Below are positions 6,907 through 47,613 of a stretch of 64,000 nucleotides of DNA, in pieces; position 1 is the first letter of the stretch, and every line of letters begins with the position of its first letter. A program made the translations under genes and the position numbers. The notes under the pieces are model-generated. The model was not told the DNA's origin, searched no databases, and saw nothing but the letters and a program-made list of their open reading frames with translations. This DNA is from Amphiscolops sp. MND2022 (Eukaryota). The DNA lies in contig OZ076409.1 of NCBI GenBank assembly GCA_964187785.1, positions 49,416,001-49,480,000 of the forward strand. Reading direction: 5' to 3'.

Positions 6907-8957
6907 TGTCACAGCCGCCACAGGGCCGTGAAATAATAAGAACAGAGAGAACGCCAGAGGAAAGAAATGGAGAAATTAACCAAGAAGAAGCTAATAAACC
7001 ATCACAAACCTGAAAGAAAACAATCAACAAACAAACACTCATTGATATTGAACAACCCTGTAAGTGCATAATATTAATATCATCAACCCCCTGCAGTACC
7101 TGAAATACATAAATATGTAAATAATTAAATAATAATAACTTGTTGTAAATGCGATTTGTTTGCAGTAGCTTGACCAATACGCTGATTGAAGTTATTCCAA
7201 CCAGCGCACTGACCAGCCTACCGTCCCAATATCTGAGTAGCAAAATACACTAATTCTCACTGTCCCTTTAATTAACCAATCAGCGCTAAGCGCGAATGTG
7301 CAGTATTAATTCAGTTACTCTGCTAGCCAAGCAATTCAGTCGACAAAGCTGGGACGCACGCCTGGCTGCTCGACTGAATTACCTGAAATGCTAGTGTAAT
7401 CAAACGACGCTAAATGTGAAATAAACTCAAATTCAGAGCTTAGAAGAAGCTTAAAATATGCAGTTTTAAGTAATAGAGTTGGAATATGTAATATTTATAA
7501 TATACCAAAGTACAATTGTTAAGTTGTCAACCATGATTTCTGGGACAACCGCTGGGACAACCGGTTTATATTTATAAACTGGGACGACCGCCGGGACAAC
7601 CAGCCCAACTTAGATGGAGCAGTAAAGAACTAAAACACCAATAGATAATGAATAACTGCCTTAATACATGTAAATGTGCTATCTTAATTATACATGGAAG
7701 GTTACAAATCATTCAAGCGAAGCGAAATGATGAATAATATTAGTACGAGCCGGGACTCCCGCCTGGACAACCGTTTGATTAATTAATGATGTATCAAATT
7801 TGAGTGAAATATTAATACGTTATGATAGTGACAATCGTTCGACATACCATATTTGTTGACCGAATGGAAATTACTCCCAGATGCTACCTAACTGAATAAT
7901 CTTGCCCCCCTTTTCACATGCATTAATTTGGGCTGTTAGCCTGGTTGCTTGACCTCGTTTGAGTATTATGTCCGTCGACCAGGCATGTGTTTAATGTCAA
8001 ATTTGTGAAAGTGCGTCGATAGTTGTGATCATCACCCCTAATTTTGTCAATTCACAAAATAGTGCAGTTTTCTCTTATGTTGAATTGCTTATTTTATTTA
8101 AAGGAAAATTCATTTCCTTTTCCCGCTTCAGTAGCTAGGTTCATGAATTTCAGTGCCAACTTCACCTTCGGCGTCTTGAAAAGGCGGGAAATGAAGAAGA
8201 AAGGGACGCGGAATTGGGAAGCGGCAGGAAGTGAATTCCCACTTTTCTTTAAAGTGGGTTGAAACCGAATGCCGAGTCCCGAGGAAGAATACCTTATTTG
8301 GATTTCCCCGCTTTGGAAAGGACGCCGAGGTGAACAAGGTGTGAATTCACGCGCGGGGTTTTCCCCGCGTGTCTAGCGTAAAGTATAAATACCTGAAGCG
8401 GGATTAGGAAAAGTTAGTTGATAATTTGATTTTTCCAAGTGCGTTTGATTAACCGTTCTCCGGAAATTTTGCCTTTGTAATAATTGTTTTAATTACTTTG
8501 CTTAATATAATTCTTTTGTTTCGTAAACCCTGACAATTCACTGAACTGAAGTCTCCATTACGTTTGTAACGACTCAAGTTTAATTGAAATATTGTCTCTC
8601 CATTATTTTGCAAGATGCCTGAGAAATCTCAAAAACGAAAGTTGAGGAGTGACCAGTCAACTAGCCAGTTCGACATAGAGACGGCAAGCTCAATCAACGA
8701 CGAAAACGCCGTACTTTCGGAAAGGGATTTTGAAGACATATCTAACAAAATTGAGAATAAAATTTCTAAGCGCCTCAGAGACACTGAGCTCAATCAACGC
8801 GAGATATTAAAATTGATTGAGAGTCTGTCGTCCAAAGTTGACAACCTATCAAGTGTCAATTCTGAACAAGGTTATTTGACGACCAGGACCGAGAATAGTG
8901 GAAACCCCACTGAAGAACTAGAAGAAGTTAGTTTGTCCAGGAACGAGAGTTCCAACA
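6907..8957 (+). repeat. Element B 5' LTR (2051 bp)
   Basis: TGTCACAGCC...TTCCAACA; near-identical to 20536-22584. Confidence 0.97.
8384..8391 (+). promoter_or_regulatory. TATA-like box of the element B LTR
   Basis: TATAAATA about 230 bp upstream of the gag ATG. Similar GTATA(A/T)ATACC motifs sit upstream of gag in C (36396) and in solo LTR D (26020). Confidence 0.55.
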
Positions 8958-10033
8958 TGGTGACAGGAGTAATTAGCGAACCAACCTCCAGCAACACCAC
9001 CCACCCCCGATCTTCGAGCCTGCCGCCTCCAAACCAGAGGCACTCCGACGAAATCATCGACAAGCTGTTAGAATCCCTGTACGCAACACAACAACAGACA
9101 GCACAATTACCCCGTCTACCAAAAACGCTTGCCACGACAATGCCAACATTTGACGGTAAAAACGAAAAGTTTGAACTCTTCGAAGATTTGTTTCAAACAA
9201 GCTTGAAGGTCCATCCCCAAATAACGGAGCAAGAGAAAATACATTATTTCCACTCCCTACTGCGAGGAGACGCCTTGCAAACCTTTCGGAACATGACCGA
9301 AACAACCAAAACCAACCTGAACGACATCATCGCCGGATTCAGACGACGATATGTAAAAACCCAGTCAATAGCAACTGCTAGGTGTAAGTGGGAAAACCTC
9401 ACATTCGACCCGGCGAACCAAACATTCCAAGATTTCTTGGAGAACTACCAGAAACTTGCCCAAGAGGCATACGCCGACGATGCACCCCGCTTTATAGAAA
9501 CCTCCTTCTACGCAAAAATGCCGATACATCTCAAAAGAGTGTTAAATCAAGCACGCCTCGAAACAGCATCATATGAAACGATGGTCCAGCACCTAGAGCG
9601 GGAGATGGAGCTCAACGGATTGGCAAATCCAGAATCCACTACATTTACCGGCATACACAATGTCGAACCCGCCAACACATCCAATCAGGGGAGACACCCG
9701 AAAACTGCAAGCACGTGCTTTGGCTGCGGACACCAGGGCCACCTCCTCCGCAACTGCAGAAAGACAAACCGAGATAAACGGAACCAAAAACCCCCCAGCA
9801 ATATCATCACCAACCCCTGCGAAACATGTGGCAAATTAAGCCACGAGACTAAAGACTGCTATTCCGGGGCGAACTGGGCAAACCGCCCTACATGGTGGAA
9901 AACGCCTAAATCAACAGGCGCCAATAGTATACCCCTACCACAACAACCTGCACCCGAAATTATACAACAACCTTCAGCAAATCAGCAGCCACAAACCGTG
10001 GCACAACCACAATACCAGCCAAAAAACTACTAA
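8615..10033 (+). CDS. gag: Element B Gag (472 aa); first ~114 codons lie inside the LTR; two CCHC zinc knuckles
   Basis: Open ORF with retrotransposon capsid-like segment (MPTFDGKNEKFELFEDLF) and knuckles CFGCGHQGHLLRNC and CETCGKLSHETKDC. Confidence 0.93.
   Translation: MPEKSQKRKLRSDQSTSQFDIETASSINDENAVLSERDFEDISNKIENKISKRLRDTELNQREILKLIESLSSKVDNLSSVNSEQGYLTTRTENSGNPTEELEEVSLSRNESSNMVTGVISEPTSSNTTHPRSSSLPPPNQRHSDEIIDKLLESLYATQQQTAQLPRLPKTLATTMPTFDGKNEKFELFEDLFQTSLKVHPQITEQEKIHYFHSLLRGDALQTFRNMTETTKTNLNDIIAGFRRRYVKTQSIATARCKWENLTFDPANQTFQDFLENYQKLAQEAYADDAPRFIETSFYAKMPIHLKRVLNQARLETASYETMVQHLEREMELNGLANPESTTFTGIHNVEPANTSNQGRHPKTASTCFGCGHQGHLLRNCRKTNRDKRNQKPPSNIITNPCETCGKLSHETKDCYSGANWANRPTWWKTPKSTGANSIPLPQQPAPEIIQQPSANQQPQTVAQPQYQPKNY
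8958..8969 (+). promoter_or_regulatory. Primer binding site of element B (TGGTGACAGGAG; tRNA-Leu-like, inferred)
   Basis: Directly follows the LTR CA and begins TGG (complement of tRNA CCA). Resembles the Leu-tRNA-type PBS TGGTGTCAGGAG. Confidence 0.85.
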
Positions 10034-13000
10034 AGCCACGTCTTCGCTTCGGGGACTACACCGACTTCAGATACTACACCATCTCTGAACCCCCGAAGGA
10101 CTTCGACAAGGAATTATTTATGGAATGCTCAGGTGAACCATCGATCGACTGGCAGCGACGATGGCTCATAAGACGCATCATCAAATTCAACAAAAACACC
10201 TTGGACAAACTCCCCTACCCAGACTGGTACACCCAAAACCCCACCCAATACAACACAACACGCAGACCATTACTTCCCAGCTCCACACCCGAAACTTACA
10301 TCTACGACCCCGACTTCGAATGCGACCCATACTACAACGACGCTCTATATGACTCAACAAACCTTGTCTTCAGACAGTCAATCAACGTACCATTTCATGA
10401 ATTCATTGCCAAAACCAACATGGACATCTCGACAACTCCAAGAAGGAAAGACGACCTCAGTCATACTCCCGAACCACAGGCTGAAGAAGAATACGACACA
10501 GAAATCACCGTGATCGTAACACCTCCAACGACTTCCCTCAAGTCAATCCTCAAACACAACAATCAATCGCCACTGGTTGACTCCCAGTCACCCACGAAAC
10601 TACCAGCCACCCCCAATGAAATCCGGGCAGCTATGACGTCGTCCCCCTCCAGTCCAGAGAGTCCTGAACATAAATACTCCACCCCTAAAACCCTGGTTGA
10701 CGACACAAAAGCCGGGGACCAAACAATTGCAAGTCAACTCACAACACAACCGAGAACTCGCCGCGTCAAACGAACTCTGACCTGCGAATTCAACCAGCAA
10801 ACAGAAGCTAAAACAGCGACAAACAGCCCACTCATCACTACCCAAACCTCAAGAGAAGAGCCAACCAACCTAGAACAAGACGAAGAATGGATTCAAACCA
10901 ACAAACAATTGCATGAAATTGCAATTACAGACCCAGAAACAAGCGAACAATGCATACCAATTTTTTCGGCCATCAATCTGAAAAAGAAAAGGAAAATGCT
11001 CTTCGCCCCGATGGATTTCAACAACATTTCAGTCGACGCGCTTGTTGACTCCGGAGCACTCGTCAACTGCTTACCAGAAAGTGAATTCCAGAAAATCAAA
11101 ACAGTAAGCCCAGACAACATCCTCAAGGAAATGGATCCACCAACATTTAAATTGCAGGTCGCAAACGGCGAGATAGAAACCCCCACAAAAACAGTTCAAC
11201 TACAATTTGAACTAGGCGACTGGACGTTCAAAGAGACGTTCATCGTAGCCACAAAGATGACAGGGCCCATCCTCGGACTAACCTTTCTCAAAAACAATAG
11301 CGCAATCCTCGACGTCAGTCAGGCCCTCTTACATTTCCCTCACCTGACTTACGCAATTTCTGCAGACGATAACGAGACAATCTCAAGACACCATAAAGTC
11401 ACTACCAAAACCCAACTCACCATCATGCCCGACCAGTGTGTAACAATTGAAGCCGGCATCAACCTACGTACCCTGACAAACACCACAGGAATCATCAACC
11501 CTACTGAACCATACTCCGGAGAACACCAACTGGTAGTAGCCAGCTCTCTATCAACAGTTACAAACTCCAAAATCGAAATCAGGGTTACCAACACATCTCC
11601 AAACCCATTCACCCTCAAAAAGAACACAAATCTTGCAGAATTCACCATTCTATCCCCCCAGGAAGCCAAGCAACTCCACCCACTCAACTCTGCAGCCCTA
11701 AAGGTATTAGCAGAAGACGATTCCGAACAGGCGCTAGAATATGTAAACGAACTCCTCAAATCGTCTGAAAAGCCTCAGACTGTTCAAAATTTCTGGTTCC
11801 CCACACCGGAAAACCCAGGAGACCCATCAACACACACACCTATCCAGAGCAGGATACTGAGAGAGATAGAAGAACTGGAAAACATCCAGAAACTCAATCC
11901 TCAAGACAGCCCTGAGGACAGAGCAACTTTCCTACCCAATTTCAAGTGGACGGATTCACAACTCAGTGATGAAGACAAAAAGGACATAGAAGCAATCCTT
12001 GTAGAATACAACGATATCTTCGCAAGGCACCGTCTTGATATCGGAATTAACAACGAATCCAAAATAAAGCTCACCCCCAAATCCGAACAGCCAGCGTACA
12101 CTCAAAGCCTACCCTGCCCAGTCAACCTGAAAGACGACTTGACAGTCGAATTGGCGTTAATGCACTACTACGGCATAATCACCACGCTCCCTTTCAGCAA
12201 GTACGCAAGCCCAATATTTGCCCAAAGAAAACCAAACGGACGCCTACGATTGCTAGTTGACTTACGAAAGATCAACAACCTCATTTCCGACGATTATATA
12301 AATAATAATCACCCTGTGAGCACCCTCTCGGATGCAGCTCAGCATTTAGCCGGAAAGAAACTGTTTTGCAAGCTTGACTGCTCTCAAGCCTACCACGTCC
12401 TGCAAATGGCAGACCAAAAATCAGTGGAACTCCTGGCGTTCAACTTTGCCAGTCGGACATTCGCCTACCTGCGACTCGCACAAGGGCTCAGCAGATCTCT
12501 CTCCTCCTTCTCGAGCTTTATGCGGGAGTATCTTGACCGAGTCATCAAAGCCGACAAGTGCGCCCAGTACGTCGACGACATCGGGATAGCTACCCATGCT
12601 GCCGAGGAGCTGAAGAACAACCTGCGTGAGGTCTTTCAGTGCATAAGAGAAGCAGGTCTGCGTCTGACAATGGCTAAATGCCAGTTCGGTGCCAAGGAAG
12701 TCGAATTCCTTGGACGAACAGTCTCACCCGAAGGAATCGCCCCACAGAGTCACAAGATCAAGAACTACCTCCAAAAACTGTCGTTCCCAAAAACCAAAAA
12801 GGGCCTACAGAGGTATATTGGTTTCGTCAATTATTATCGGAACTACATACCTCGCCTCTCCGAAAAGATAGCACCCTTCCACGAATTAGTCAAGGCAGAC
12901 AAACCAATCAAGATCACAAACGAGATCATCGGGACATTCGACAACATCAACAAGGCACTTGACAACGCTTGTGGGCTATGGCTGAAACAACCACTACCCA

Positions 13001-15396
13001 ACAAACAGTACGTCCTCATGACAGACGCGAACTTCAAAAATGCAGGCTACGCCCTCATGATTGAAGAAAACGCTGATGAAAAACTGACCTCAGTTAAAAA
13101 GACTTACGCCCCGGTAGCGTTTGGTTCCAAGACATTCTCTCCGTCTCAAATCAAAATGTCAATATATGCCAAAGAATTCTTGGCTATATATTTCGCCTTC
13201 ATGGAATACAGCCACATATTGTGGGGATCGACCAAACCGGTCATCGTCCTAACAGACAACAAGTCCGTCACACGGTTTTTTCAAACCAAGATAATACCAC
13301 CAGCCTTGTGGAACGCCTGCGATTTCGTCCTACAATTCAACTTTACGATCGCCCACGTCCCAGGGCGCATGAACACCGCAGCTGATTTCCTTTCCCGACT
13401 TGACCTAGACCCAAAGGAAAAAGTCCAACTCTTAATCCGAGACGACATTCAAACAACACCAATAGAGGTACACATTCAATCCTCCAACGTCGCAGAAGAG
13501 GAACAGTTCTACTTCCTCCCCGATGATGACATTGAAACCGAAGAACAAATTTGGGAGAGGAAGCAAAGAGCCCGCAAGAAAATTCTAGGGAACGACACCC
13601 CACCAACGCCAGGAGAAGAAGCAAATAATGAAACAGTCCAAACAGAAGACACCACAGTCATATTTCAAACGGAAATAACAAGACACAACAAAACCACCGA
13701 AGACAAAGAAAACACCCTCCCAACTGACATGCGACACCAACAGGACCAAGACAGTGTCCTCAGAAACTACAAACTGCGCCTCCTCAAGGAACCATACGAT
13801 GAACACCTGATGGCCACAGACCACAGGGCACTCCGTTACACAGCGCAAGAATCGAGAATCATACTCAAAGACGGACTGCTATACCGGCAGTACTTCGGAG
13901 AAACCGGAACAGTCAAACACCTGCAAGTACTACTCCCGGAGCAACTGGTCGACTCCTTCATCGAGGCACACCATGGAATGCACAACAAACACCCGGGAAT
14001 AACGAAAGTAATACAACAATGCAGAGAAAAGTATTACTACCCAAGTCTCGCAGCAAGGATAGCCAAACATATCAACCAATGCATGAAATGCATGCAAACA
14101 AAACGAACAGACAATCGCCTCCTAACCCCACCAATGATCGACACGTCCAAACTGGCAATGGGACCGGAAGATGCCCTACAAATGGACATCGTCCCCTTCG
14201 ACGAGCCATCCAACGGATTCACAGCGATAGTCACCGCCATGGACGTCTTTTCCCGCTACCTATTTACCTATTGTGTCACCAAAATAGATGCCCGCTCGAT
14301 CGCAAGAGTACTGGTAGACATAATGACAAGACATGCTTACCTGCCCACAACGATCATAACTGACAAAGGAACCCAATTCATGTCCGAAGTAATGGCTGAC
14401 ACCACACGCGTTCTAGGCATCCAATTGAGACACGCAACTACAAAACATGCCCAAACAATTGGTATCCTAGAACGCTGTCATGCATCCTTAAAAGAAGCCC
14501 TGAAAATATCAACAGGAGAAAGGAGAACAATGTGGCACCAGTTCGTACCAACCGCCACACTAAACTACAACACAACCTACCACTCAGCACTAGGGTGCGA
14601 ACCCAGTAGAGTATTCCATGGCAGAATACCATACAACGTGCTTGACTTAAAGTTCGGTCTCAAACAGAACCAAACCCAAAACCCAAGAACAGACATAGGC
14701 GAAGAAGTCGTCCAGAAGACCCGGATGATACACCAATCAGTAACCAAACACCTCCTCCACTCCTACATACGCTACAAACAGTACTACGATAAAAAAGCTT
14801 CTGCCCACCCCCTAGCAGCAAACGACTACTGCTACGCCTTACATCCCCAGGCAAACAACCAGGGATCGAAACTACCTTTCCGCGAGTATTTATGGACAGG
14901 ACCATTCGTAGTAGTTAAAACCCTTCCCGACAACAACTACCTAGTTCGTAAATTGCAAACGAACAAGACCCAAATTCTACACAGGATACGACTGAAACCA
15001 TGCCCCACGAAAAATCGCCTTCCTGATATACAAGTTCAAACCAAGGACTTTCAACCAGACGATGAAGTTGAAATCCTACACGATGACCTATACGCCCTAG
15101 CCTGGCAATCAGGGTTTGAACACTTCATGATGACCCATAACCACGATTCCAACAACGAATCGGCAATCAACCCGACCGATAGTCATGACGTCTTAGAAAA
15201 CATTGCCCAGGATGACACCCACGATATCCTAACGGAACCCCAACCCGAACAACAGGAATCCCAACCAGAACCCAACCCAAACCCAGAGCCTAGTTCCCCC
15301 CGCAAAGGCAAATATAACCTTCGCAGCAACCCCCCTTCAAATTGGAAAAGGGACTACGCCTACTACAACCCAATGGTTGTTAGCTCAAACGAATAA
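10021..15396 (+). CDS. pol: Element B Pol (protease, dUTPase-like, RT, RNase H, integrase), expressed by -1 frameshift
   Basis: 1758-aa ORF from 10120, open back to the slippery site at 10021. Motifs: LVDSGA, YVDD, RNase H (MTDA...TDNK), HHCC, integrase core, GPF. Confidence 0.96.
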   Translation, partial: KKLLKPRLRFGDYTDFRYYTISEPPKDFDKELFMECSGEPSIDWQRRWLIRRIIKFNKNTLDKLPYPDWYTQNPTQYNTTRRPLLPSSTPETYIYDPDFECDPYYNDALYDSTNLVFRQSINVPFHEFIAKTNMDISTTPRRKDDLSHTPEPQAEEEYDTEITVIVTPPTTSLKSILKHNNQSPLVDSQSPTKLPATPNEIRAAMTSSPSSPESPEHKYSTPKTLVDDTKAGDQTIASQLTTQPRTRRVKRTLTCEFNQQTEAKTATNSPLITTQTSREEPTNLEQDEEWIQTNKQLHEIAITDPETSEQCIPIFSAINLKKKRKMLFAPMDFNNISVDALVDSGALVNCLPESEFQKIKTVSPDNILKEMDPPTFKLQVANGEIETPTKTVQLQFELGDWTFKETFIVATKMTGPILGLTFLKNNSAILDVSQALLHFPHLTYAISADDNETISRHHKVTTKTQLTIMPDQCVTIEAGINLRTLTNTTGIINPTEPYSGEHQLVVASSLSTVTNSKIEIRVTNTSPNPFTLKKNTNLAEFTILSPQEAKQLHPLNSAALKVLAEDDSEQALEYVNELLKSSEKPQTVQNFWFPTPENPGDPSTHTPIQSRILREIEELENIQKLNPQDSPEDRATFLPNFKWTDSQLSDEDKKDIEAILVEYNDIFARHRLDIGINNESKIKLTPKSEQPAYTQSLPCPVNLKDDLTVELALMHYYGIITTLPFSKYASPIFAQRKPNGRLRLLVDLRKINNLISDDYINNNHPVSTLSDAAQHLAGKKLFCKLDCSQAYHVLQMADQKSVELLAFNFASRTFAYLRLAQGLSRSLSSFSSFMREYLDRVIKADKCAQYVDDIGIATHAAEELKNNLREVFQCIREAGLRLTMAKCQFGAKEVEFLGRTVSPEGIAPQSHKIKNYLQKLSFPKTKKGLQRYIGFVNYYRNYIPRLSEKIAPFHELVKADKPIKITNEIIGTFDNINKALDNACGLWLKQPLPNKQYVLMTDANFKNAGYALMIEENADEKLTSVKKTYAPVAFGSKTFSPSQIKMSIYAKEFLAIYFAFMEYSHILWGSTKPVIVLTDNKSVTRFFQTKIIPPALWNACDFVLQFNFTIAHVPGRMNTAADFLSRLDLDPKEKVQLLIRDDIQTTPIEVHIQSSNVAEEEQFYFLPDDDIETEEQIWERKQRARKKILGNDTPPTPGEEANNETVQTEDTTVIFQTEITRHNKTTEDKENTLPTDMRHQQDQDSVLRNYKLRLLKEPYDEHLMATDHRALRYTAQESRIILKDGLLYRQYFGETGTVKHLQVLLPEQLVDSFIEAHHGMHNKHPGITKVIQQCREKYYYPSLAARIAKHINQCMKCMQTKRTDNRLLTPPMIDTSKLAMGPEDALQMDIVPFDEPSNGFTAIVTAMDVFSRYLFTYCVTKIDARSIARVLVDIMTRHAYLPTTIITDKGTQFMSEVMADTTRVLGIQLRHATTKHAQTIGILERCHASLKEALKISTGERRTMWHQFVPTATLNYNTTYHSALGCEPSRVFHGRIPYNVLDLKFGLKQNQTQNPRTDIGEEVVQKTRMIHQSVTKHLLHSYIRYKQYYDKKASAHPLAANDYCYALHPQANNQGSKLPFREYLWTGPFVVVKTLPDNNYLVRKLQTNKTQILHRIRLKPCPTKNRLPDIQVQTKDFQPDDEVEILHDDLYALAWQSGFEHFMMTHNHDSNNESAINPTDSHDVLENIAQDDTHDILTEPQPEQQESQPEPNPNPEPSSPRKGKYNLRSNPPSNWKRDYAYYNPMVVSSNE

Positions 15397-15728
15397 ACTT
15401 TCAATATGAATTCATGAAATGGTACACCTACTACTCACTCAATTGACCTGAAACTGACTCAAATCCCTACTACTCATCTACAAACTCAACAGAAAACGAA
15501 TTCGAGGAGCAGAAGAGTGAATTATTGTAAACCCCCCAACTGACATCCCTCCTTTTCTCTCATTTTCTAAGAATGGCGATGCAATTTTCTTTTCTTGCCA
15601 AATACAACGCAATCAGACCACGTGAGCCAGAAACAAAATAGAAATAATCAGCTATAAAATATAAACTGCTAATACAAACAAAGACTAAAATCCGATCAAG
15701 TATATCTGCAACAAGCCGAACACACGAC

Positions 15729-18700
15729 TCAATTCTGGGAACTACGCTTCCTAGACACACCGGAAGCTTCTTTACTGGATGAACAACTGGGCACACTCCC
15801 AAGACGTTGGTTCTTCTTCTCCCTCACTTTTTCCGCTACACTGCTGGACCCACGGGACTGCGAAACTGACACAGTAGACATCTTTGTTGGTGGGATAGCG
15901 ACAACTGACGGAACCTTAGAACTCTTCCCGGAAGAAGGCCCAACTACGGCATCCACCTGCTGAGAATCCAACACAGGCTGTAACTTGTCCGGAGACGAGG
16001 ACGCAGAGTACAAACCCAGACCAGCTCGCCGACGCCACTCTGCCACCTGGGCCAGATAATAGGAATCAAACGCATCACGCAATTCGCGATAGAGGTCACC
16101 TCGGGCATGCAAATACAAATTACCCCACGGCGAGAAGGAAGCGTTATCCATAAAATTCTTCCCGTTTGGCAAGTTGCACTTCAGTTCCTCGAGACAATCC
16201 TTCGTCAACAGTTCTCCGGAAACGAACTTATCGAACGAAACGTACGATTGACAAGCAAAGATCGAGGACAATAAAACCTTCTTTGGAATTTTGGATCCAC
16301 TCAGTGACATATCGACGACCGGATAACAGATCTCACGCGGAACCACGGCCATTGCAGCTAACTGCACAACTCGATCCAGATTCAGACGACAGTCCAGTAG
16401 CCCGGAATCACGCAGGAAAGCGAAACTGTTCGTGATAGAAGAAACCACCCGTTTGTTCCGTCGCCGTAATTCAACGAGCAAAGATTTAAACTCGTTAGCA
16501 GCTGCCTCGCAATCCAACGAGGATAGACGCCCACAGTCCAATAAATAGGTGGTCAGATCCTTGAAGAGAACAACAGCATATGACTCATCGCCCAATAACA
16601 TCATATCTGGAGAGAAGCAACTCAGACTAGATGCCAAACCCGACTTTGCATAAGCAGACTGATTGAGCACCTTCAGGAATTCCAACAGGAAACCCTGACA
16701 CTCACGAAGGAAAGTGCGCCGGAAAGCATCACTGCAGGACGACAAAGCCACAGTAACAAGGGGCTCACCTCGAAGACACTATGTATACGGAATGTTGGCC
16801 CATGTCGTCAAAGGTAGACCGATATACTGGCTCCATGCTTCAATCTCAGGCAACGCACTCAACTTCTTCACCTTCCCAAGCAACGCCCAATAAAAATAAC
16901 AGAAATCAGCATAATTACGGCACGTGTAATCGGTGACTTCAGTTGCAAACTGCTTCTCAAAGCTGGCCTGGAAACAGGATACGAGCACATGCAGGACACT
17001 CAGCCGAGGCAAAACCAGAGTATCCGCAAGTATCATCTGCCCTATGTCAAGAGGAGGTTTACTTTTGGGAGGCATCACAGTCCCAGTCTCCTTCAGGAAC
17101 AATCTCACGTCGTCCCAATGATGGATCAACTCGGAAATAACGGCGCACAAAGAAGCAAAAGGAACTTGACGCTGACGAACGCACCTGTGAAACTCAGATA
17201 AACCCATCAGCCATGGTTGACGAACAGCTTTAACCAAGCGCAATAACAAATAATCCAATATGGCAAAAGGATCCAGCAAATTTGTTCCAACCAGCCCAGC
17301 GTCCCGAACATGATCTCGGAACGTGTCAGACGTATACTCCAAGACAGGCAACGGCACAGGACGACTTCCGGTTTTGCACCAGCTCGAGAAGACATTGAAT
17401 AATGTGGAAGAACAACCACGAACTGCAACAGGAGACTGCTCAGCAGGAAGAACGGCAAGAATTCGAGACAAACACTTGATCTCAGCATCACACAAACCCG
17501 CGGAAGACTCCTCCCAGAGAACACATACTTCACGGATAACATCATCAGCAAAGAAACAGACGAAACAGCGCAACCCGGTGTCATCCTCGCGAAATGTCAA
17601 ACTGAATTCGGAGTTGTTGCAGCCAGTTTGGACTCGACGCAGAATACGAGGATACAGAGTCTGACTCAATACCACAAACGATTCAGTCTTACTCCAGGTG
17701 GCCTGGGCATAGCTAGTCTCAACTGGAATCGTTGTCCTGAACTGGCTCCAGAGTCTTCTAAGGAAGCTGTGAGATCCCCCGCTCCGCAACAACTCAAACA
17801 GACCACCCACGAGCGTCGAAGAGGGAACGTTCGAGACTACTCCAACGAGAGCATCCACTTCATCCTCCACGAAGGCATTCTTCTTACCAAGGACTACTGG
17901 CGGCGTCTTTTCAATTTCTGCACGCAACTCAGGAGAAATAGTGGCAACAGCAATCTCATCAAACCCAGCGGTATACACGGTATCCTCATGATCGAGACGA
18001 TAACGCTGATCTTTGGCAAAGTGAGTTTTGCAGCCAAAGTGCCGCCAGATCTCGAGTTCCCCCCGCCACAGGAATGAAATGTCCTTCCGACATATGGCAC
18101 AGTTGAACCCGTTTGGATTCTTGTCCGCCCTCTGGCTAACGAACAGACGAGGAATAGGGTGAATTGCCATGCTTCTTCGAAGAACATGACGCTCGGTCTG
18201 CCGTTTCTTCCTCCTCTCGTATTTGGCAAACAGTTTGCTCTTAGTCACCTCCTCAGCGTCCAAATGACCACGAGCCCGATCCAACTGAATCCCCTTCTGT
18301 TTGAGAAGCTGCATGATTTTGTCTAACTCTACAACACAAAGGGACAATCACATCCCGATAATACTACTTTGACATAAACCCACCCCCAGACAACCCTGAA
18401 GACATATGGTACCCCTAAACAACTATAAGTGGGATCATGACGCAACTGCGAACAAACAAACAACAGACATATACAACTTACGACGAGAAAGAGAACGTTC
18501 TTCTGCTCGACTATGAGTTCGCTCCAAGCGAACAGCTGCCTGGCCGAAAGCCAACACTTGCGAAGCAGATAAGCACACCGCTCCCTCCGGCACATCCTTT
18601 AGTCCAGCTAAAAAACAATGAATTCATAAGGACAATCAACGCACAAACACGACGCCCCCCCCCACAACAAGGCACCAACCAAAAGACACACGATACAAAT

Positions 18701-19712
18701 AATTGAAGACGATAATAACCTTTTGCCCACTCATTGTGGATGACCGACCGCTCCAACCCCTCTACTGGTCGTGAATGCTGTGTACGCTCACGCTTTGGTC
18801 GGAAACCCGCATCACCACCACCACTCGACACAGCCTCGTCGGCCACAGTGGGAACAATCATTGCATCGGAAGACGACGAATCCACTCCCATAGAAGCTTC
18901 TCCATGGACTTGTGAAGAACCAACTGAAATCAACTCGTACTCATCAATAAGCAGAAACAATCATTCGAACGAGCACAGCCAAGGTATTTATATAATGCTA
19001 GAGGAAGAAAGAAATACCCACCTTCAAAACCTGCAATAGGCGACGCCGCTGATCTAGTGGTCATCCCAGCACACCCTCCAGACTGAGACCAACGGCCTTG
19101 GTTAGATGGACTAGCACCACTAACAGATGCCACAGCAGAGCGAGACCCAGGGACATAATCATCATCACGAGAATCATCGGACAATCCTAAAACAGCAAGA
19201 AAGGTGGATGAAATGACGCGTCTGCATACTAGCATGAAAAGTTAGCTGGCCACTAACATTTCGCTAAGCAACTTACCCTCTAAATCACATAAATAGTCCA
19301 AATCGTGGCGTGCATCACTTTCTGTCGAATGCATTGAACCAGCATCGTCACTATCTGAACTGCCATTGTTACTCGCACTCTCAGAACCCGTGTCATCGGA
19401 ACAGTCATCATTGTCAATCTCCCCGAATCCACTACCACGTTTAGCACACTGGGACTCCAACCCAGCCAACGACTCCATAACTTCTTCTTCACCACTTGAC
19501 TCAGCAATAATCAATCGGGACTCAGCAGCACTTTCTTCCTCCTGACTCTCTTGACCTGCCTCTTGCAGCAGAACGCCCGTCAGTTCACTCTCTCCCTCAT
19601 GACTCTCTTGACCTGCCTCATGTAACAAGATACCTTCTCCCTCGCTCTCCACAACTCCAATTTTTCCAGACCGCAAAATCCGCTGGTCATCTTCATCAGT
19701 CGAATGCGACAT
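15729..19712 (-). CDS. Element B antisense multi-exon cargo gene: acidic N-terminus, C2H2/BED-like zinc finger, hAT-transposase-like body. One in-frame TAG at 16779-16781 (possible pseudogene copy)
   Basis: Predicted exons 19712-19277, 19186-19031, 18923-18720, 18607-18482 and 18328-15729. All four GT-AG introns are phase 1 and join in frame (~1174 codons). Finger CAICRKDISFLWRGELEIWRHFGCKTH. Homologous to the cargo gene in C. Confidence 0.75.
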
Positions 19713-19991
19713 AATAAACACTCAAATCTGAAATAAACTCAAACCTGATACCAAAAGTCGAAGACGTGGCGTAAAACCAACGCTAATACTAATATTACAA
19801 ACTAATAGTATGACGTAATGGAAGTCATTCAGTCTGCCAGCTGAAAACTTTCCCATTCATGCAAGCGGCGTGAACAGAAGAAAAGAACGGAATTATCATT
19901 CAATTACTCGACCATTCCGCAGAACAGCCGCTCAGCATTGCTTACAACTATTACTATTTATTGCATACAATTTATCTACTCATCGGATCAA

Positions 19992-20642
19992 ATGAATTCA
20001 TCGACACTAAATTCCTCAACCGATTATTTCATTTTGGACCGCGACCAAGACGCTGCCCCAGTAAACCCCTGCGCACATTCAACACCTAAAGCGCTTGGTG
20101 ATAATTGCGAAAATACTCAAACACCAATTATCGAGGATATTTACGAGATTATCAATACTGGGACAGAACATATTGTCCTTTACCATGAGTCGGCGCCGAT
20201 ATCTATCCTAGAAACAGCCCAATCAGATACATTACCATCCAGGAAATTTACAAACTTCAACCCAATTATCCCGGATGACGAATTCATGAGCCCCCCTAGA
20301 AACTACGAGAATATGGACAATTGGCTATACGGGCCGCACGATGGGACAATCAGCCCCATCTCCAGTAACTCTAGTTCGATAGGTTACTTCTCAGGAAGTG
20401 ACTGGTCAACAGATTCGTCCTGGATGTCTTATGATTCAATGGTACAGTCTATATTTCAACCCCCCATCTCTTCCCCATTCAGGCCAATTTCACCACTTCT
20501 TCCCACAATGGACGTCTCTCATCAAAGCCGGGGACTGTCACAGCCGCCACAGGGCCGTGAAATAATAAGAACAGAGAGAACGCCAGAGGAAAGAAATGGA
20601 GAAATTAACCAAGAAGAAGCTAATAAACCATCACAAACCTGA
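19992..20642 (+). CDS. Element B ORF3: S/P/D-rich protein of unknown function, ending inside the 3' LTR
   Basis: Open frame (ATG at 19992) reads through the PPT and ~107 nt into the LTR; same position as ORF3 in C. Confidence 0.6.
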   Translation: MNSSTLNSSTDYFILDRDQDAAPVNPCAHSTPKALGDNCENTQTPIIEDIYEIINTGTEHIVLYHESAPISILETAQSDTLPSRKFTNFNPIIPDDEFMSPPRNYENMDNWLYGPHDGTISPISSNSSSIGYFSGSDWSTDSSWMSYDSMVQSIFQPPISSPFRPISPLLPTMDVSHQSRGLSQPPQGREIIRTERTPEERNGEINQEEANKPSQT

Positions 20643-22584
20643 AAGAAAACAATCAACAAACAAACACTCATTGATATTGAACAACCCTGTAAGTGCATAA
20701 TATTAATATCATCAACCCCCTGCAGTACCTGAAATACATAAATATGTAAATAATTAAATAATAATAACTTGTTGTAAATGCGATTTGTTTGCAGTAGCTT
20801 GACCAATACGCTGATTGAAGTTATTCCAACCAGCGCACTGACCAGCCTACCGTCCCAATATCTGCGTAGCAAAACACACTAATTCTCACTGTCCCTTTAA
20901 TTAACCAATCAGCGCTAAGCGCGAATGTGCAGTATTAATTCAGTTACTCTGCTAGCCAAGCAATTCAGTCGACAAAGCTGGGACGCACGCCTGGCTGCTC
21001 GACTGAATTACCTGAAATGCTAGTGTAATCAAACGACGCTAAATGTGAAATAAACTCAAATTCAGAGCTTAGAAGAAGCTTAAAATATGCAGTTTTAAGT
21101 AATAGAGTTGGAATATGTAATATTTATAATATACCAAAGTACAATTGTTAAGTTGTCAACCATGATTTCTGGGACAACCGCTGGGACAACCGGTTTATAT
21201 TTATAAACTGGGACGACCGCCGGGACAACCAGCCCAACTTAGATGGAGCAGTAAAGAACTAAAACACCAATAGATAATGAATAACTGCCTTAATACATGT
21301 AAATGTGCTATCTTAATTATACATGGAAGGTTACAAATCATTCAAGCGAAGCGAAATGATGAATAATATTAGTACGAGCCGGGACTCCCGCCTGGACAAC
21401 CGTTTGATTAATTAATGATGTATCAAATTTGAGTGAAATATTAATACGTTATGATAGTGACAATCGTTCGACATACCATATTTGTTGACCGAATGGAAAT
21501 TACTCCCAGATGCTACCTAACTGAATAATCTTGCCCCCCTTCACATGCATTAATTTGGGCTGTTAGCCTGGTTGCTTGACCTCGTTTGAGTATTATGTCC
21601 GTCGACCAGGCATGTGTTTAATGTCAAATTTGTGAAAGTGCGTCGATAGTTGTGATCATCACCCCTAATTTTGTCAATTCACAAATTATTGCAGTTTTCT
21701 CTTATGTTGAATTGCTTATTTTATTTAAAGGAAAATTCATTTCCTTTTCCCGCTTCAGTAGCTAGGTTCATGAATTTCAGTGCCAACTTCACCTTCGGCG
21801 TCTTGAAAAGGCGGGAAATGAAGAAGAAAGGGACGCGGAATTGGGAAGCGGCAGGAAGTGAATTCCCACTTTTCTTTAAAGTGGGTTGAAACCGAATGCC
21901 GAGTCCCGAGGAAGAATACCTTAATTGGATTTCCCCGCTTTGCAAAGGACGCCGAGGTGAACAAGGTGTGAATTCACGCGCGGGGTTTTCCCCGCGTGTC
22001 TAGCGTAAAGTATAAATACCTGAAGCGGGATTAGGAAAAGTTAGTTGATAATTTGATTTTTCCAAGTGCGTTTGATTAACCGTTCTCCGGAAATTTTGCC
22101 TTTGTAATAATTGTTTTAATTACTTTGCTTAATATAATTCTTTTGTTTCGTAAACCCTGACAATTCACTGAACTGAAGTCTCCATTACGTTTGTAACGAC
22201 TCAAGTTTAATTGAAATATTGTCTCTCCATTATTTTGCAAGATGCCTTAGAAATCTCAAAAACGAAAGTTGAGGAGTGACCAGTCAACTAGCCAGTTCGA
22301 CATAGAGACGGCAAGCTCAATCAACGACGAAAACGCCGTACTTTCGGAAAGGGATTTTGAAGACATATCTAACAAAATTGAGAATAAAATTTCTAAGCGC
22401 CTCAGAGACACTGAGCTCAATCAACGCGAGATATTAAAATTGATTGAGAGTCTGTCGTCCAAAGTTGACAACCTATCAAGTGTCAATTCTGAACAAGGTT
22501 ATTTGACGACCAGGACCGAGAATAGTGGAAACCCCACTGAAGAACTAGAAGAAGTTAGTTTGTCCAGGAACGAGAGTTCCAACA
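20536..22584 (+). repeat. Element B 3' LTR (2049 bp)
   Basis: Direct repeat of 6907-8957 with a handful of differences, including GAG>TAG in gag codon 3 (22248). Preceded by a weak PPT (AAAGCCGGGGAC) and followed by TSD GTATT. Confidence 0.97.
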
Positions 22585-22589
22585 GTATT

Positions 22590-23100
22590 CTTATTTTGTT
22601 TACTTAGCGCAGTGCCGACGTCCTAATCCGCACTAATTGCTGTTCAAAGTGCAATTAAGCTGCCTTTCTTAGAAAAGGTGTAATTATTTCAGTGTGTCAT
22701 CTCAATGTACTTTCTATTCTAGATTCAAATAATGTCCTTTTTCCAATGGCGATTTTGGGTATGTTTTCGTTTAGATCGGTCTATGGCCTTTATTTCACGA
22801 TGTGTTTTAATTTAGTTTTCAGGTGGCGAATGTTCTTATTTTGGCGCACTAAAGACGTCCCACCGGAAATGTGTGAAATCATTTTAGTTCATTTTAGTTT
22901 CTGTTCTCATTTTCGTTTAAACTTTACGTAAGTTAGGCGTGCGTTTTCGTTTTTCTAGTCACAGTTTATTTAAGATTAGAGTTTAAAGTTTTTAAGTTAG
23001 TAATTGAAATACCATTTGGGGAATCGCAGGCTGCATCCATGGCCTCTTCCGATCCCCACTCGTCTGCAATGACAATCCAGTCCGGGAGCGGGCTGTGACA
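22590..23100 (-). repeat. Probable distal part of the element A 5' LTR, displaced by insertion of B
   Basis: The minus strand begins TGTCACAGCC at 23100, the family LTR start, in the same orientation as A and just across the B TSD. Confidence 0.6.
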
Positions 23101-25013: not shown

Positions 25014-26744
25014 TGTCGCAGGCTGCCGCCTGTGACGGCACAAGGATTACAACAACAGCTGTTGGCCAGGATGTGGCCCCAGGAACTCTCCCTATATCTA
25101 TTAAAGTAAACTAAAACTTACTCTTAAACTTTTACGTTGCTTATGTATTTTGTTGCCATATTATTTTAGAAAATAGCCAAAAGGGCCGTACCGGGACGTA
25201 TTCCCTTGTTACCAAAACTTAGAATTATTGCACTTGTTGATTATTTATAGTCAACCTTAGTTTTGAATGTCAACTGTATATTAGTCTGTTAACATAGATC
25301 GTGCTGTGTTGTTGTATTATCAATGTAATGCAGTAATAATCAAAGATTATAGCAAGCAACTAAGAGAAAGTACGGAAACGAGTTCAAATGGACTCCTGTA
25401 CTTTCTTGCCAACGCCGCTTGCGCTCACCCAATTAGCCAATCAGAGGCCTTCATTTTCGAGTGCTTTATTCTCTTTTGCCAATTACGGCCTTTGTACAAT
25501 ATGGACGAGTGTGCTATTAATGCCGTTCAGGCGAACGGCCTAATCCGGCTATTTAGTCTCCAATGAGTGAAGCACTTGTAATTGATGCTAATTTCATGTA
25601 GTAGTATTTATTTAGTAGTAGGCTTTGTTGATCATGAAATACCAATTTGAAGTGCTATTTAGTACTTTGTTGTGTTACTAACAAATAGTTGCCCGATTCT
25701 GCTTTAATATAACCCTGTTGCATGAAATTTGATGTTATTGCCTTAACAGGCCTTTTGCCATTGTACCTACGATAAGTATTTAGACCAAACAAGTTTGTTG
25801 TGCTATCACGTGCTAAAGAACGCGTACCTGTATCAACAAATACCTGTTCGATGGAAATATTTTGCCAAATATGTAAACGATGCTAACGGTTGAATGTTTG
25901 TTCCTTTGATGTATAATATTTGGAATGGATGGCGTTCATCCCGTGACCATCAGAAATGCAGTCATATGATATTGTCTTAGTCAAGGAATGTAAAGAATGT
26001 GAGTGTCACTCTTTCGGGGGTATAAATACCTGTGCCTTTGAGAGAGGAGACACTTCTTATTTGCTCTCTTCTGAAAAAGACTATCATATTAGTACAAACG
26101 GTTTCACTGTTATTTTCGAGATATAATCTAATTCAATTTTATACTCGAAGTTTTCCTTATGCCTACTACAAGAAAACAAAAGAAGACTAGAAAGTCCAGA
26201 GGACTAGAGATCCTTTCTGATATCGAAAACCTAGATATAATGTTAGGAGGCGATCGTTACAATGGAACTGTAAGAGAAAGGAGTTTAGACAGTAACTACG
26301 TTAGAAGGAGAGAAAGTATCGTGAGTAATAATTTAGACAATGAGGGCGGAAGCCTGTTTTCAAATTGTAGAAATGATGAACCTAGGACAAGTGCCGATCT
26401 TGGCCAAAACTCAGCTGAAGCAAACTCACTAGCTGAGATAAACAGGTTGTCTAGCGAATTGAACTCTAGGATATCCCGTGAGATGGATGAAATGATGAGT
26501 AATGTTGATACGCTGATCCAAAGGGCCATTAATGAAGCTATTAGTAGTCAAGTATTGCCTCAAATACAGAATGCCATAATGGCCGGATCAGGCCGAGAGA
26601 CCAGAAGGGGATGGGAAGCCCCAGTTGAGAGACCGGAAGTAAATGCCGAGGAACAGCGAATTCCAAGTGCTAAGGCCGACTGTAGAAATGAACAACATGA
26701 TGGATACCGACCAAGTGGTCAATCAAGCCGTCATGCTCATGACA
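25014..26744 (+). mobile_element. Solo LTR D (1731 bp) of the large-LTR clade
   Basis: TGTCGCAGGC...CATGACA with TSD GTACC on both sides; contains a TATA-like box and the gag N-terminal frame. Confidence 0.92.
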
Positions 26745-43418: not shown

Positions 43419-43612
43419 TCAGACATGTAAATTAAAGTCCCATAAGTCTCTTGGACTAAACTAATATTTTTTACTGGGACTACTCTGACTCCGAACTTTT
43501 CAAATAAATACAACAAACAACATACAAAACGCTTCAATAAATAAAAGGAAGATCAGTTCGTTTATGTTAAATACAAAATAACAGACTAAAGAACAAATGT
43601 ACATATGTACAT

Positions 43613-46600
43613 TTAAGATTTAGTGGTCTTCTGTCCAGATTCCTGTCCGCTTGCGGTACCCTTCTCAGTTTTGGAGCTATCGAAAGAAACTTTCTTTTTT
43701 CCTTTCCCAGGAGAAGATTTGCGTCGAACAGCAGCAGGAGAATTAGATCGTGAACCAGTTTTACTCGAAGAGGCTGACCTTGGCGCCCGGACCACAGATT
43801 CGTAAGCGGCATGGAGGGTCTTATAAAAATCAGCTCGCCCAAAAGTGTCGACGTGAACCCAAGGGTCACCAGCCACATTGCCAGAATTGAATTGCTGTTC
43901 AACCTCACGATATTTACACAAAGAGACATCATTAGTGCAAACTGAGATGGCGTCAGGGACTCGTGCTAGGAAGGACTGAGCAGGGAGCAACACGTCACCC
44001 AATCTACACCGAGGACTCTGCGCGTCAACGTCCTGAAAACGGATATATGGAAGCAATGGGGTGTCCTCTGTCAAGCACAAACAGCACAATCGAAATAAAC
44101 GATATAAATGATGTCGACTTCGGAGCTCAGCCATATTAGATAACAGCTCCACTATATCAGTAAAACCATCAGGCGAATCTTCCAGGGCGGCATACTTTTC
44201 GCGAAATAAGTCGACAAATTCTAGGTACTCGTCGCGACAGTCGTCTTCAGAGGATCCTTCCAACCATCCACGGAGATTGAAACTGTGATACAGTGCTCGG
44301 AAACAATAGGTCGCCTGGTCCCGAGGCAAACGCAAGAGGATGTGCGGGTCAAAACTGGCCATTCCCTTCACAATCTCAGCATTGATGCTGTGATGCGCTA
44401 GCAGCTTCTCAAGAAGGTAGACAACGTACCCCCTTGCCTTTCCAGCGAATTTCTCCTTGCATTCCTCAACGAGCTTGGAGAAATTAGGTATCGGCCCTTC
44501 CTTGTCACTGTGATCTCGCTTGACCTTAGATTCAGCAGCTCCATCTAGATCTTCTTTCAATTTCAATCGATGGAGAAAATCCCTGGAGGAGAGTTGTCGC
44601 AACTCAGCAGTCCGCAGAATGGGTAGTTGGGTCCAATCAGTTTCGCTGGGATGATGCTTGGGGAGCAGAGAGCGATAGCACAACTTGCGGATGAAATTAT
44701 TTAACTGCCCAAAGGTGAAGAAGCCAGCGTCCCTGTATCCAACTAGACTTCTCTCAAAGCAGCGAATATCTAAACAGAGAAATGGACCTCTGAGCATAAC
44801 ACCTTACCCGGTGAGTCCCTGTGAAGAAAATGCGTGAGCGACCACAAGTAAATTCCCTCCGAAACGAAAGCAATACTCACAATCATAGACGATCTTTCCA
44901 AAGAATTCCAACTTGACTAGGAAGAAGTCATCGGAGATGATAGTCCACTCCAGACTCTGTGGCTAAAAGGAAACAAGAGCAACTAATGGATAGTGACCTT
45001 GGGATCACACGTCATGAGGAGAAAATCGAAAAAGGGACAAAGAAAAATTGAAACCTTATTTTTAACTCCTCGCATTTCGTAACCAGGGGCAATCCTAGTC
45101 AGGTGGTCAAGAATTGGCTGCCAGTTACTGATCAATTCGGTACAAATAGCTGGAATGCACCGTATCTTCAGGTCAAAGTTGCTTATAGCCTAAAAGGAAC
45201 ACTCCCTGCTATGAAATGTACAAACATTGTGCAGACATGTGGGTCCAACAATATTAATTCAAACCTTGGCCAGTTCTGGGCAAGAAGACATCCAAGGCTC
45301 ATCAAGACTGTTGTTGAGGAAGGCCAGTAGGTACTTCAGCTGTGTGAAGAAGTCAATCCGCCCAAACACACTACCTTCAAGCTGGTGCATTAGCTTGGGG
45401 AGAGAGAAGGCATTGAAACGGAATGGGTACTCGATGCCCTTCTTGAACAGCCCGGAACGTTCAACTGATCGCAACACTTCAGATGTGCACCCAGATATGC
45501 AGGCAATTTGTGGCAGCGTGGAAAGGAAGGAGAGTAGACGGGAAATCATCTGTAACTGACTGGGGCCAGGGTCCGAAGGTAGAGGGTATTTACACAATTG
45601 GACCTTGGTCAGGATCCCCACCTTCCAGTACCTAATTGAGAGGATGCACTGATTTCCATGTGGCTCAAACTCCAGAGAGTACGCTCCACAGGAATTCACA
45701 GACTGAGCTATATCCTCCATTCCTCGCAAAAAGACGTGGTGAAACATGGCCTGGAACAGAACGAAATCACTAAAAACTTAGAAAGAACAAACTATAATCT
45801 GATGGACTTAGTGGATTAAGTGACACCCTCAAAAATCATACGTCTGGTGATCCTAATTTGCAGAAAAGATGAAAAGACTTACAGTGAGCGTGAGTGAACT
45901 CCAGTCAAGCTGTCGGAAAGAGTCTTGATGGTTGGTGAAGTTCCCAACCTCGGCCCACAGTCCCTCCAGTATAGCCAAGTTGCCGAAATGCGGAACTGCT
46001 CGTCCGATCAATGAAAGTTGCGTACCCAACCTCAAATCTTCAGGGCATGCGATTCCACCAGCACTAGCCATGTAGTCGTCATAAAAGGGGAATCTAGGGC
46101 CAATGTCCACTAACGGAGCCGATTCGAAATGGGGCTTCTCTTTCTCTAATTCTAGAGCGGATAGAAGATGTCCGTCTTTCCCTCTAACTGCATGGACGGT
46201 TTGTCCACTGAGTTTGTCCACCCTACTAAGGTGTTCGAAGCGCCATCTTTGGTCTTTGCGCAAATGGGTCTCGCTCTGGTAGTGTCTCACGATCTCTCTG
46301 GCCCCTTTGGTATAAATCGACACATTCGTCTTGCAGATCTGGCAGTAGAATTTGTGCTTGTTATGCACAGGGTCTAGGGGTCCAGTCACGAAAACTTTGG
46401 TCCACTGAATGCCTTTGAAATAGGCGGCTTTCATGATCTTGCCAGGCCTGCCTACAAACCTTCGCTTCTTGCGTGGTGGACTGCCTCCTGGTCGACGTGA
46501 TTGGTCTTCTCCCCGTATGGCACTTAGAGGTTGATAGTCCCCCTCGCTGTAACCTGGGCTAGGGACTGTAGTGTGGCTGGTACTAGGGACCTTGTCCATC

Positions 46601-47613
46601 TCATCATCGGAAGTATCTGGGAAACCAGAACGTCCTCTTGGTAGTGGTGTTCCACAGCGTGGCCTGGACGCAACAACGAGATCATCATCGGAGGAGAGGG
46701 CTCCACTTGTATAATCATCGGTTATTCCTCCCTCACTTTCTGTATCAGCACCGGAGCTACTGGGACCGCCTTGGGTAGGAAGCACGCCTCGAACCATCGA
46801 TTTTCGGAACTGCCCAGGAGTTTGTTTCCCAGCCCCGTAGACAGCATGTAGGACAAGGGAGCGCATGGCATGGATGGATGATTTTACGGTTTCATCCGAT
46901 ATGGTCTTGAGGACGGCGTGTATCTGTGGCTCACTAAATGAAATGGTATTATGGCCTTTGGGCAATTCAATTGGGGCAGAAGAGGAAAAGTGCTTTCTTA
47001 AAACAGCCTGTCCATTAGCTGAGAATTGTCCTGGCAGTTTCACCTCTCTAGTCCCGGACTTTGTGGATACAGGCACTGTACCACTTATATCTTGGCCGGA
47101 GGTACTCTCTGCTGCAGATGGTAATTCAGTACAAGTAATGCTCGAGGTAGGGCGTTTGCGTGTTCCTTCGGTACCCATCTCGTCAAGCAGTTCGCCAGCC
47201 TCGCTAATATCAGAGGTAAAATACGACTTTGCCTTATCGTGTGACTCAAAGTAATTGCCAGTCTCCTTAGAAGTCCCTGGTTGCATTTGATCGAATGAAG
47301 AGGTCTCCTCTCCTAGGCGTTCAAAACCTATCGACTGAGAAACCTTCCCGGGCCCTGCTGTTCTAACTTCAGGCTGTGCCAATGGTGGGAGAAATGAGAT
47401 ATCCAGAGAAGGATCATCACCGGCCAATGCTCGTAAAGTTTTCTCTGCGTAAGAAGTTACGCTCTCTTCAGTGTTTCCACTACTGGATGACTGGTTGGAG
47501 TCAGGACGCATTACCACTACTGGCTCTTTTGGTGCTGTATTAATTTCTTCGGCAACCCCAGAATTCTCTGATGTTGGAAGAATTGTGTTGGTGACTTGTT
47601 CTTCAGACGCCAT
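43613..47613 (-). CDS. Element C antisense multi-exon cargo gene (~1196 aa): disordered N-terminus, C2H2/BED-like zinc finger, hAT-transposase-like body
   Basis: Predicted exons 47613-45883, 45750-45265, 45189-45055, 44962-44881 and 44769-43613. GT-AG introns of 132, 75, 92 and 111 bp (phases 0, 0, 0, 1) give a stop-free frame that aligns with the intron-free core of the B protein. Finger CQICKTNVSIYTKGAREIVRHYQSETH. Confidence 0.8.

Follow-up and report, generated by a model that had tools for sequence, protein, structure and literature searches.

The stretch of DNA analysed here, hereafter the window, comprises 64,000 nucleotides (nt) of contig OZ076409.1 (positions 49,416,001 to 49,480,000, forward strand) from the 1.07-Gb assembly GCA_964187785.1 of Amphiscolops sp. 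MND2022, and holds three Ty3/gypsy retrotransposons with long terminal repeats (LTRs): A, which lies on the minus strand and runs off the left end of the window, B (6907-22584) and C (35454-51236). This work concerns a gene carried antisense by B in the region between pol and the 3' LTR, which we call the cargo gene. Element B is nested in the 5' LTR of A (window 4913-6900 and 22585-23100; locus L136) and is complete, with paired TG...CA LTRs, a short target duplication (GTATT), a TGG sequence resembling a primer-binding site directly after the 5' LTR, and a purine tract. Its 5' LTR (6907..8957, plus strand, 2051 bp) is 99.56% identical to the 3' LTR (20536..22584, plus strand), and the LTRs of C are 99.9% identical, in keeping with a recently mobile family. 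A gag frame that begins within the LTR (8588..10033, plus strand; Pfam DUF1759 and Retrotrans_gag) is followed by pol (9928..15396, plus strand), in which Pfam matches fall in the protease, reverse transcriptase (RT), RNase H and integrase order of Ty3/gypsy elements. Downstream, a sense open reading frame (ORF3; 19845..20642, plus strand, ATG at 19992), acidic and rich in proline and serine, stands head-to-head with the cargo gene in 40 of 40 loci; a Pfam search with it gave no match. Conserved non-coding blocks between the two genes (19745..19900, no strand assigned) are a candidate promoter and a candidate right-hand boundary for the allele exchange discussed below.

The cargo gene is read from the minus strand, from 19712 down to 15729. 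Exon 1 (19277..19712, 436 nt) contains the ATG and encodes 145 amino acids, 40 of them D or E and 7 K or R; it is followed by predicted intron 1 (19187..19276), exon 2 (19022..19186), predicted intron 2 (18924..19021), exon 3 (18720..18923), predicted intron 3 (18608..18719), exon 4 (18482..18607, 126 nt), predicted intron 4 (18329..18481) and exon 5 (15729..18328), all introns being in phase 1. Exon 5, an open frame of about 870 amino acids in most copies, is predicted to encode a basic helix, a C2H2 finger, a hAT transposase fold and a disordered tail, while exons 1-3 form an acidic, serine-rich arm. A preliminary description of this locus, made from the letters of the sequence, had joined minus-strand frames through four introns, and the four intervals it gave do read GT...AG on the minus strand in phase 1, with an exon 1 of 436 nt and internal exons that are multiples of three. 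The total length it gave is also correct (3522 nt, or 1174 codons with the stop) if the donor of intron 2 is placed at 19030, which is GT in 1 of 13 subfamilies, the window's own only; the donor at 19021, mentioned there as an alternative, is GT in 13 of 13 and gives 1177 codons with the stop. Nor is the frame open throughout in the window, where an in-frame TAG (16779..16781, minus strand) that is private to this copy (0 of 29 other close copies) interrupts exon 5. The proposed likeness of exon 4 to element C was not supported: when a profile of exon 4 was run against 13 N-terminal exons of the C family, 10 gave no domain, the window's included, and the highest score, -1.5 bits for the corresponding peptide of one copy, did not reach the top value among 260 shuffles (1.7 bits). 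An acceptor-like AG (19728..19729, minus strand) follows a pyrimidine tract just upstream of the ATG in 13 of 13 subfamilies, and the same arrangement precedes the ATG of the C cargo; for this acceptor in the 5' untranslated region no convincing donor was found, the two weak candidates both lying inside ORF3.

Comparison of copies gives several reasons why the cargo is a real gene. Thirty close copies, 93-99% identical, retain the introns in every case, and 17 of the 30 are free of stops, frameshifts and lost splice dinucleotides. Because such copies are too alike to inform on splicing, 40 diverged loci were fetched, which together with the window make up 13 cargo subfamilies whose representatives share 50-83% amino acid identity with the window copy in exon 5. 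Conservation of the splice sites among copies had been proposed as a check of the gene model, and the introns were found in all 13 subfamilies, with each of the four donors (19276, 19021, 18719 and 18481) being GT in 13 of 13 and a YAG acceptor, taken as the nearest YAG with no frame filter, lying at -6 to +15 nt of the aligned acceptor in 52 of 52 cases. Exon 1 has a length of 1 modulo 3 in 13 of 13 subfamilies, exons 2-4 have lengths of 0 modulo 3 in 39 of 39 (exon 4 being 126 or 129 nt in 13 of 13), and none of the 52 N-terminal exons contains a stop codon, whereas the intron lengths fall almost evenly into the classes 0, 1 and 2 modulo 3 (19, 18 and 15 of 52). The 18 distinct changes in exon length are all multiples of three, for which the chance is about (1/3)^18, an approximate value into which only distinct lengths enter; in contrast, 30 indels that are not multiples of three were counted in intron 3 over the 30 copies. 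Furthermore, the antisense frame is under purifying selection: in the closest subfamily pair the ratio of nonsynonymous to synonymous substitution rates (dN/dS) is 0.21, 0.16, 0.14 and 0.06 for exons 1-4 and 0.05 for the first 510 codons of exon 5, synonymous sites being near saturation in pairs beyond the closest, and substitutions shared within the family in exon 5 number 31, 11 and 106 at codon positions 1, 2 and 3. Conserved GT-AG sites, exons that keep the frame and purifying selection are together what a spliceosomal gene would display, and the four predicted introns are very probably spliced. Searches of the same genome with three cargo queries returned at least 83, at least 150 and at least 150 scored matches; the matches in databases were unnamed ENA proteins throughout. 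Pol adjoins the cargo in 39 of the 40 loci, which had been fetched by cargo similarity. The remaining locus (L093) matches its sister up to the 3' end of the gene, and the sequence fetched around it shows no pol.

Antisense homologues of the gene are present in A and C, and their exons align with the B profile in the same order (E values of 9e-67, 7e-53 and 2e-10 for A, and of 7e-23, 3e-18 and 3.5e-10 for C, in which two short exons were not significant); the B and C cargo genes are homologous through the core. The C homologue (43613..47613, minus strand) has five exons without stops, and its introns (45882-45751, 45264-45190, 45054-44963 and 44880-44770, minus strand) are in phases 0, 0, 0 and 1 and read GT-AG in 13 of 13 copies. 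All four lie in the core and none in the N-terminal coding part, the reverse of what is found in B, while A has the acceptor of intron 4 in common with B and, apparently, two of the core intron positions in common with C. The A homologue (L136:4700-8670) has both N-terminal and core introns, and this copy looks decayed. Whatever the tree of the three elements, an intron must have been lost precisely at least once, or recombination must have taken place within the gene. It had been suggested that antisense orientation lets a retroelement keep an intron-containing gene, and this stands in part. The predicted cargo introns read CT...AC on the packaged strand, so that splicing of the genomic RNA cannot remove them, and they have persisted; however, since loss or recombination is needed, the orientation would shield the introns, though not permanently.

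The product of exon 5 very likely has the fold of a hAT transposase, as judged from a structural model. The model, for which the sequence of a naturally occurring open copy and an alignment of 61 rows were used (predicted local distance difference test score 84.1; predicted template modelling score 0.72), shows an RNase H fold with a helical insertion as in Hermes. When it was searched with Foldseek, ranks 1-10 were all the Hermes hAT transposase (best E value 8.5e-6; next unrelated hit 0.062), and in a wide structural search Hermes came first with a Z score of 13.0 (root-mean-square deviation 5.0 over 399 residues), followed by ISCth4 at 7.0. Neighbours in the ESM Atlas, obtained independently of the model, were hAT, ZBED5, FAM200 and C17orf113 clusters at 0.90-0.93, a range that shuffled proteins reached 4-10 times in 100, and therefore this match supports a hAT identity and does not prove it. 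The ligands of the N-terminal C2H2 finger are kept (C76 in 41 of 44 rows, C79 in 44/45, H96 in 40/43 and H102 in 42/43); because there is no Pfam zf-BED match, we call the finger BED-like only. Basic runs resembling nuclear localization signals, judged by eye, are present in the cargo of both B and C.

Two of the three catalytic residues have probably been lost. At the first aspartate position, inferred to lie at the end of the first core strand, D or E occurs in 6 of 46 rows, and at the second, inferred to lie on strand four, the count is 2 of 49 rows in one register and 4 of 48 in another; the CxxH motif is absent from the cargo alignment rows. In contrast, a control set of 47 hAT transposases has D in 44/47 and 47/47, C and H in 47/47 and E in 47/47. 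The cargo thus apparently does not have the complete DDE triad and the CxxH of an active hAT transposase, nor does it have the surroundings of a hAT element: no inverted repeat of at least 40 nt, the range searched, flanks the gene in the window, and no such repeats with an 8-bp duplication were found around it. Sequence comparison gave no match to the hAT profiles PF05699, PF14291 and PF27073, and a search of the Protein Data Bank with the cargo alignment returned nothing credible. A search of the host's own genome with PF14291 matched nothing anywhere, control included, and no close hAT donor of the cargo was found among the host hAT frames fetched.

The gene is also exchanged as a cassette between pol backbones. 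Elements that are 97-100% identical to B in pol and ORF3 fall to 50-75% nucleotide identity within the cargo. In three alleles the boundaries lie near 15470-15500 and 19745-19810; those of other pairs are spread over tens to hundreds of bases. Over 70 loci, six cargo types were found on one pol type, and the cargo type of the window on two main backbones. Template switching between co-packaged RNAs is established for retroelements, and it would account for this exchange of alleles. A segment of the LTR (about 21000-21800 in the 3' LTR of B) also swaps between elements otherwise 95-99% identical, independently of the cargo allele.

The explanation that we narrowly favour is that a clade of LTR elements domesticated a hAT transposase as an exchangeable antisense gene, and that the dead enzyme binds DNA and activates copies of the element or steers new insertions towards related elements. 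A hAT transposon would have landed head-on in an ancestral element, in the interval from pol to the 3' LTR, and lost its ends and its catalysis; the cargo would then have been kept as a DNA-binding body that helps the element, its introns retained as they face away from the packaged RNA, and its alleles exchanged at conserved flanks by template switching. As to the role itself, it is about an even prospect that the protein binds DNA and serves these elements as an activator or as an anti-silencing factor, and this role is preferred because of the finger, the acidic arm, the basic runs and the precedent from DNA transposons described below. The least certain step, for which the case is evenly balanced, is that the zinc finger and the transposase body bind element DNA while the acidic N-terminal exons recruit transcription or chromatin machinery.

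Several observations weigh against this explanation. No Pfam family was matched at E < 0.02 in 61 cargo members, hhalign against two hAT sets gave non-significant probabilities of 0.7% and 0.3%, and identity to Hermes is 8-12%. The third catalytic position is still acidic (D or E in 28 of 29, at a position taken from a weak profile alignment), and 25 other alignment columns are at least 90% D or E. The first two catalytic positions were located from their place on the strands and from the register of the motif, and not by superposing residues, so that the enzyme is no more than likely to be dead. Furthermore, among 525 proteins fetched, none runs from exon 4 on into exon 5, and no binding site was identified. 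The type of LTR is not tied to the type of cargo (LTR type 0 occurs with two alleles and type 1 with three), which argues against a strict pairing of activator and target at the variable LTR segment.

The acidic third position and the other acidic columns, together with a tryptophan invariant in 48 of 48 rows and exchange boundaries that hug the gene, could instead mean that the cargo has rebuilt its active site and still works as a nuclease or transfers strands, in cassette exchange or in the processing of DNA. This is improbable, since the two catalytic strands have no conserved acidic residue, CxxH and terminal repeats (of at least 40 nt) are absent, and the boundaries scatter in other pairs.

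Of the alternatives, the one that survives best, unlikely as it is, is that the dead transposase serves as an integration tether that binds DNA or chromatin and brings the integrase to related LTRs or to hAT-derived repeats. When the 3' flanks of 36 B and 16 C insertions were examined, 6 of 1326 pairs shared sequence, more than among random windows (26 of 76000 control pairs). Four of the 36 B insertions cluster at a single spot of A-family LTRs, to within about 80 bp, where none of 400 control windows and none of the 16 C flanks fell, and three of the 36 lay in or beside one family of hAT-like miniature inverted-repeat transposable elements (MITEs). This MITE is about 415 bp long (L237:141-560; L123; L251-L260), with terminal repeats of about 45 bp, ends that resemble those around a host hAT frame, and 8-bp duplications that are exact in 8 of 9 listed cases. 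However, a general targeting of hAT sequences was rejected, as 4 of 36 insertions were near hAT loci against 42 of 400 controls (p 0.78), and so was a bias towards promoter motifs, no target-site motif being found among nine tested. The same hot spots are used by different cargo alleles, and C has a homologue, yet its 16 flanks show no clustering. The clusters were recognized post hoc, and a preference of the integrase itself for open chromatin could explain them; we treat them as a lead. The copies of the A-family LTR spot are 71-99% identical, and the spot lies near a TATA-like and CRE-like sequence, judged by eye.

Somewhat less likely again is that the cargo acts in counter-defence, either by binding silencing proteins of the host, as a decoy or a scaffold, or by forming mixed oligomers that poison hAT-derived factors of the host, and not through a DNA site of its own, with the exchange of alleles resulting from host pressure. 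The presence of six alleles on one pol type and of the window allele on two backbones, the divergence inside the gene between nearly identical flanks, and the lack of coupling to the LTR type would all be consistent with this possibility. In contrast, the dN/dS values of the closest pair (0.05-0.21) give no sign of positive selection in pairwise counts, the zinc ligands are kept, and ORF3 and the LTR are mosaic too, so that the mosaicism may be ordinary recombination.

The introns had also been expected to evolve faster than the exons, which does not hold uniformly: their lengths vary freely, and intron 1 is unusually conserved (0.62, against 0.52 and 0.50 in the flanking exons) and has 0.006 substitutions per site, against about 0.015 in the flanking exons. 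In this intron a short inverted repeat encloses a palindromic loop (19257-19241), and there is another palindrome, of 6 nt (19221-19216). RNAalifold found no pairs in intron 1, single folds of either strand were within about 1.7 standard deviations of shuffles and not more stable than these, and an Rfam search of 15300-22600 gave no match at E up to 1. A stem of five pairs drawn by hand has one covarying pair only, gaps occur in 4 of 13 rows at its remaining four pairs, and it is at most a lead. The reading that antisense RNA or cis signals matter and the protein is incidental, or that the gene is a neutral nested remnant of a transposon, could draw on these palindromes, on the one compensatory pair and on the proposal of antisense RNA regulation for such genes in the available text of PMC7264820, and it is the least probable of all, already disfavoured by low dN with synonymous sites near saturation, by frames open in 13 subfamilies and by homologues kept in A, B and C, the pol proteins of which are only 52-55% identical.

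The HBZ transcript of HTLV-1 is spliced, and HBZ is a small protein with a fold unrelated to that of the hAT cargo. It resembles the B cargo in being an antisense gene for a nuclear regulator (as far as covered in the accessible parts of PMC11963269 and PMC7264820) and differs in that the 3' LTR drives its expression. Plant Ty3/gypsy Retand elements (TRP28/PF04195; gene23 of maize Grande) and the fungal element Boty have antisense 3' ORFs whose origin and function are called unknown, and the Grande gene is described as having its own promoter and a nuclear product, for which DNA binding and a regulatory role were proposed (available sections of PMC7264820 and PMC11963269). As with the Retand ORFs in those sections, the B cargo is antisense, lies between pol and the 3' LTR and is kept in most copies. 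It differs in its full predicted hAT fold, its four conserved introns, the head-to-head sense ORF3 and the exchange of alleles; the word intron does not occur in the accessible text of PMC11963269, and the Pfam searches gave no match to PF04195 in the B cargo.

The cargo shares with hAT transposases (Hermes, and the ZMYM1/THAP12- and ZBED5-like groups) an N-terminal C2H2 finger, an RNase H core with a helical insertion and a C-terminal region. In contrast to these, it apparently lacks two aspartates and CxxH, has no terminal repeats in the range searched, carries about 300 extra acidic residues and travels by reverse transcription. Accessory factors encoded by elements, Spm TnpA and VANDAL VANC, have been proposed to activate cognate copies, and the DNA-binding part of TnpA has been traced to a transposase (bioRxiv 10.64898/2026.08.24.746577 and PMC13547354, in the parts available). 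It is also stated in the accessible portion of bioRxiv 10.64898/2026.08.24.746577, in which the term LTR does not occur, that transposases activate cognate elements and become regulators through loss of catalysis. TnpA, VANC and domesticated transposases serve DNA transposons or the host, whereas B would be a class I element that keeps a class II protein, with a proposed regulatory role. Coe1 of sugar beet likewise has a multi-exon DNA transposase gene between putative LTRs, this being of En/Spm type and accompanied by an RT pseudogene (PMC2426827, accessible text), and LTR elements of bdelloids capture other ORF3s (PMC5408684, accessible text). The B cargo would work like a Retand antisense ORF or like TnpA, yet it belongs to neither group, and it is probably no active hAT transposase. 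A literature search, with most subscription papers outside its scope, found no hAT-derived, multi-intron, exchangeable antisense gene in an LTR element, and an earlier description is possible.

If the favoured reading is true, a class II protein is in the service of a class I life cycle, with its alleles swapped between backbones, which would extend the domestication of transposases from hosts to other transposons. The case would give an antisense gene of an LTR element a structural identity, that of a disarmed hAT transposase according to the model, and it places under selection a cargo found across many young families of this large genome. Two functions, self-activation and target choice, become directly testable, and the elements offer a natural system for intron retention and loss within a reverse-transcribed genome. 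Genes of this type escape annotation based on Pfam and on ORFs, which is a warning for other genomes.

Some further features of the elements were also observed. The gag frames of B and C both begin in the LTR and read through the primer site (window 8588-8975 and 36535-37100), and in the pol of C (38166-43418) there is a dUTPase-like match between protease and RT (E value 6.9e-5), none being found in the pol of B. In all three elements a sense ORF3 stands head-to-head with the cargo (in C at window 48801-49694 and in A at L136:3466-4200), each acidic and starting with Met-Asn-Ser; the ORF3s of A, B and C gave no significant BLAST match to one another, and no Pfam match was obtained for those tested (B and C). 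Elsewhere in the window there are nested inverted repeats (27568-28950), a 297-bp direct repeat with copies 3.5 kb apart (31034-34837), and a dispersed repeat with short ORFs, found at 26151-26700 and again at 59809-60357.

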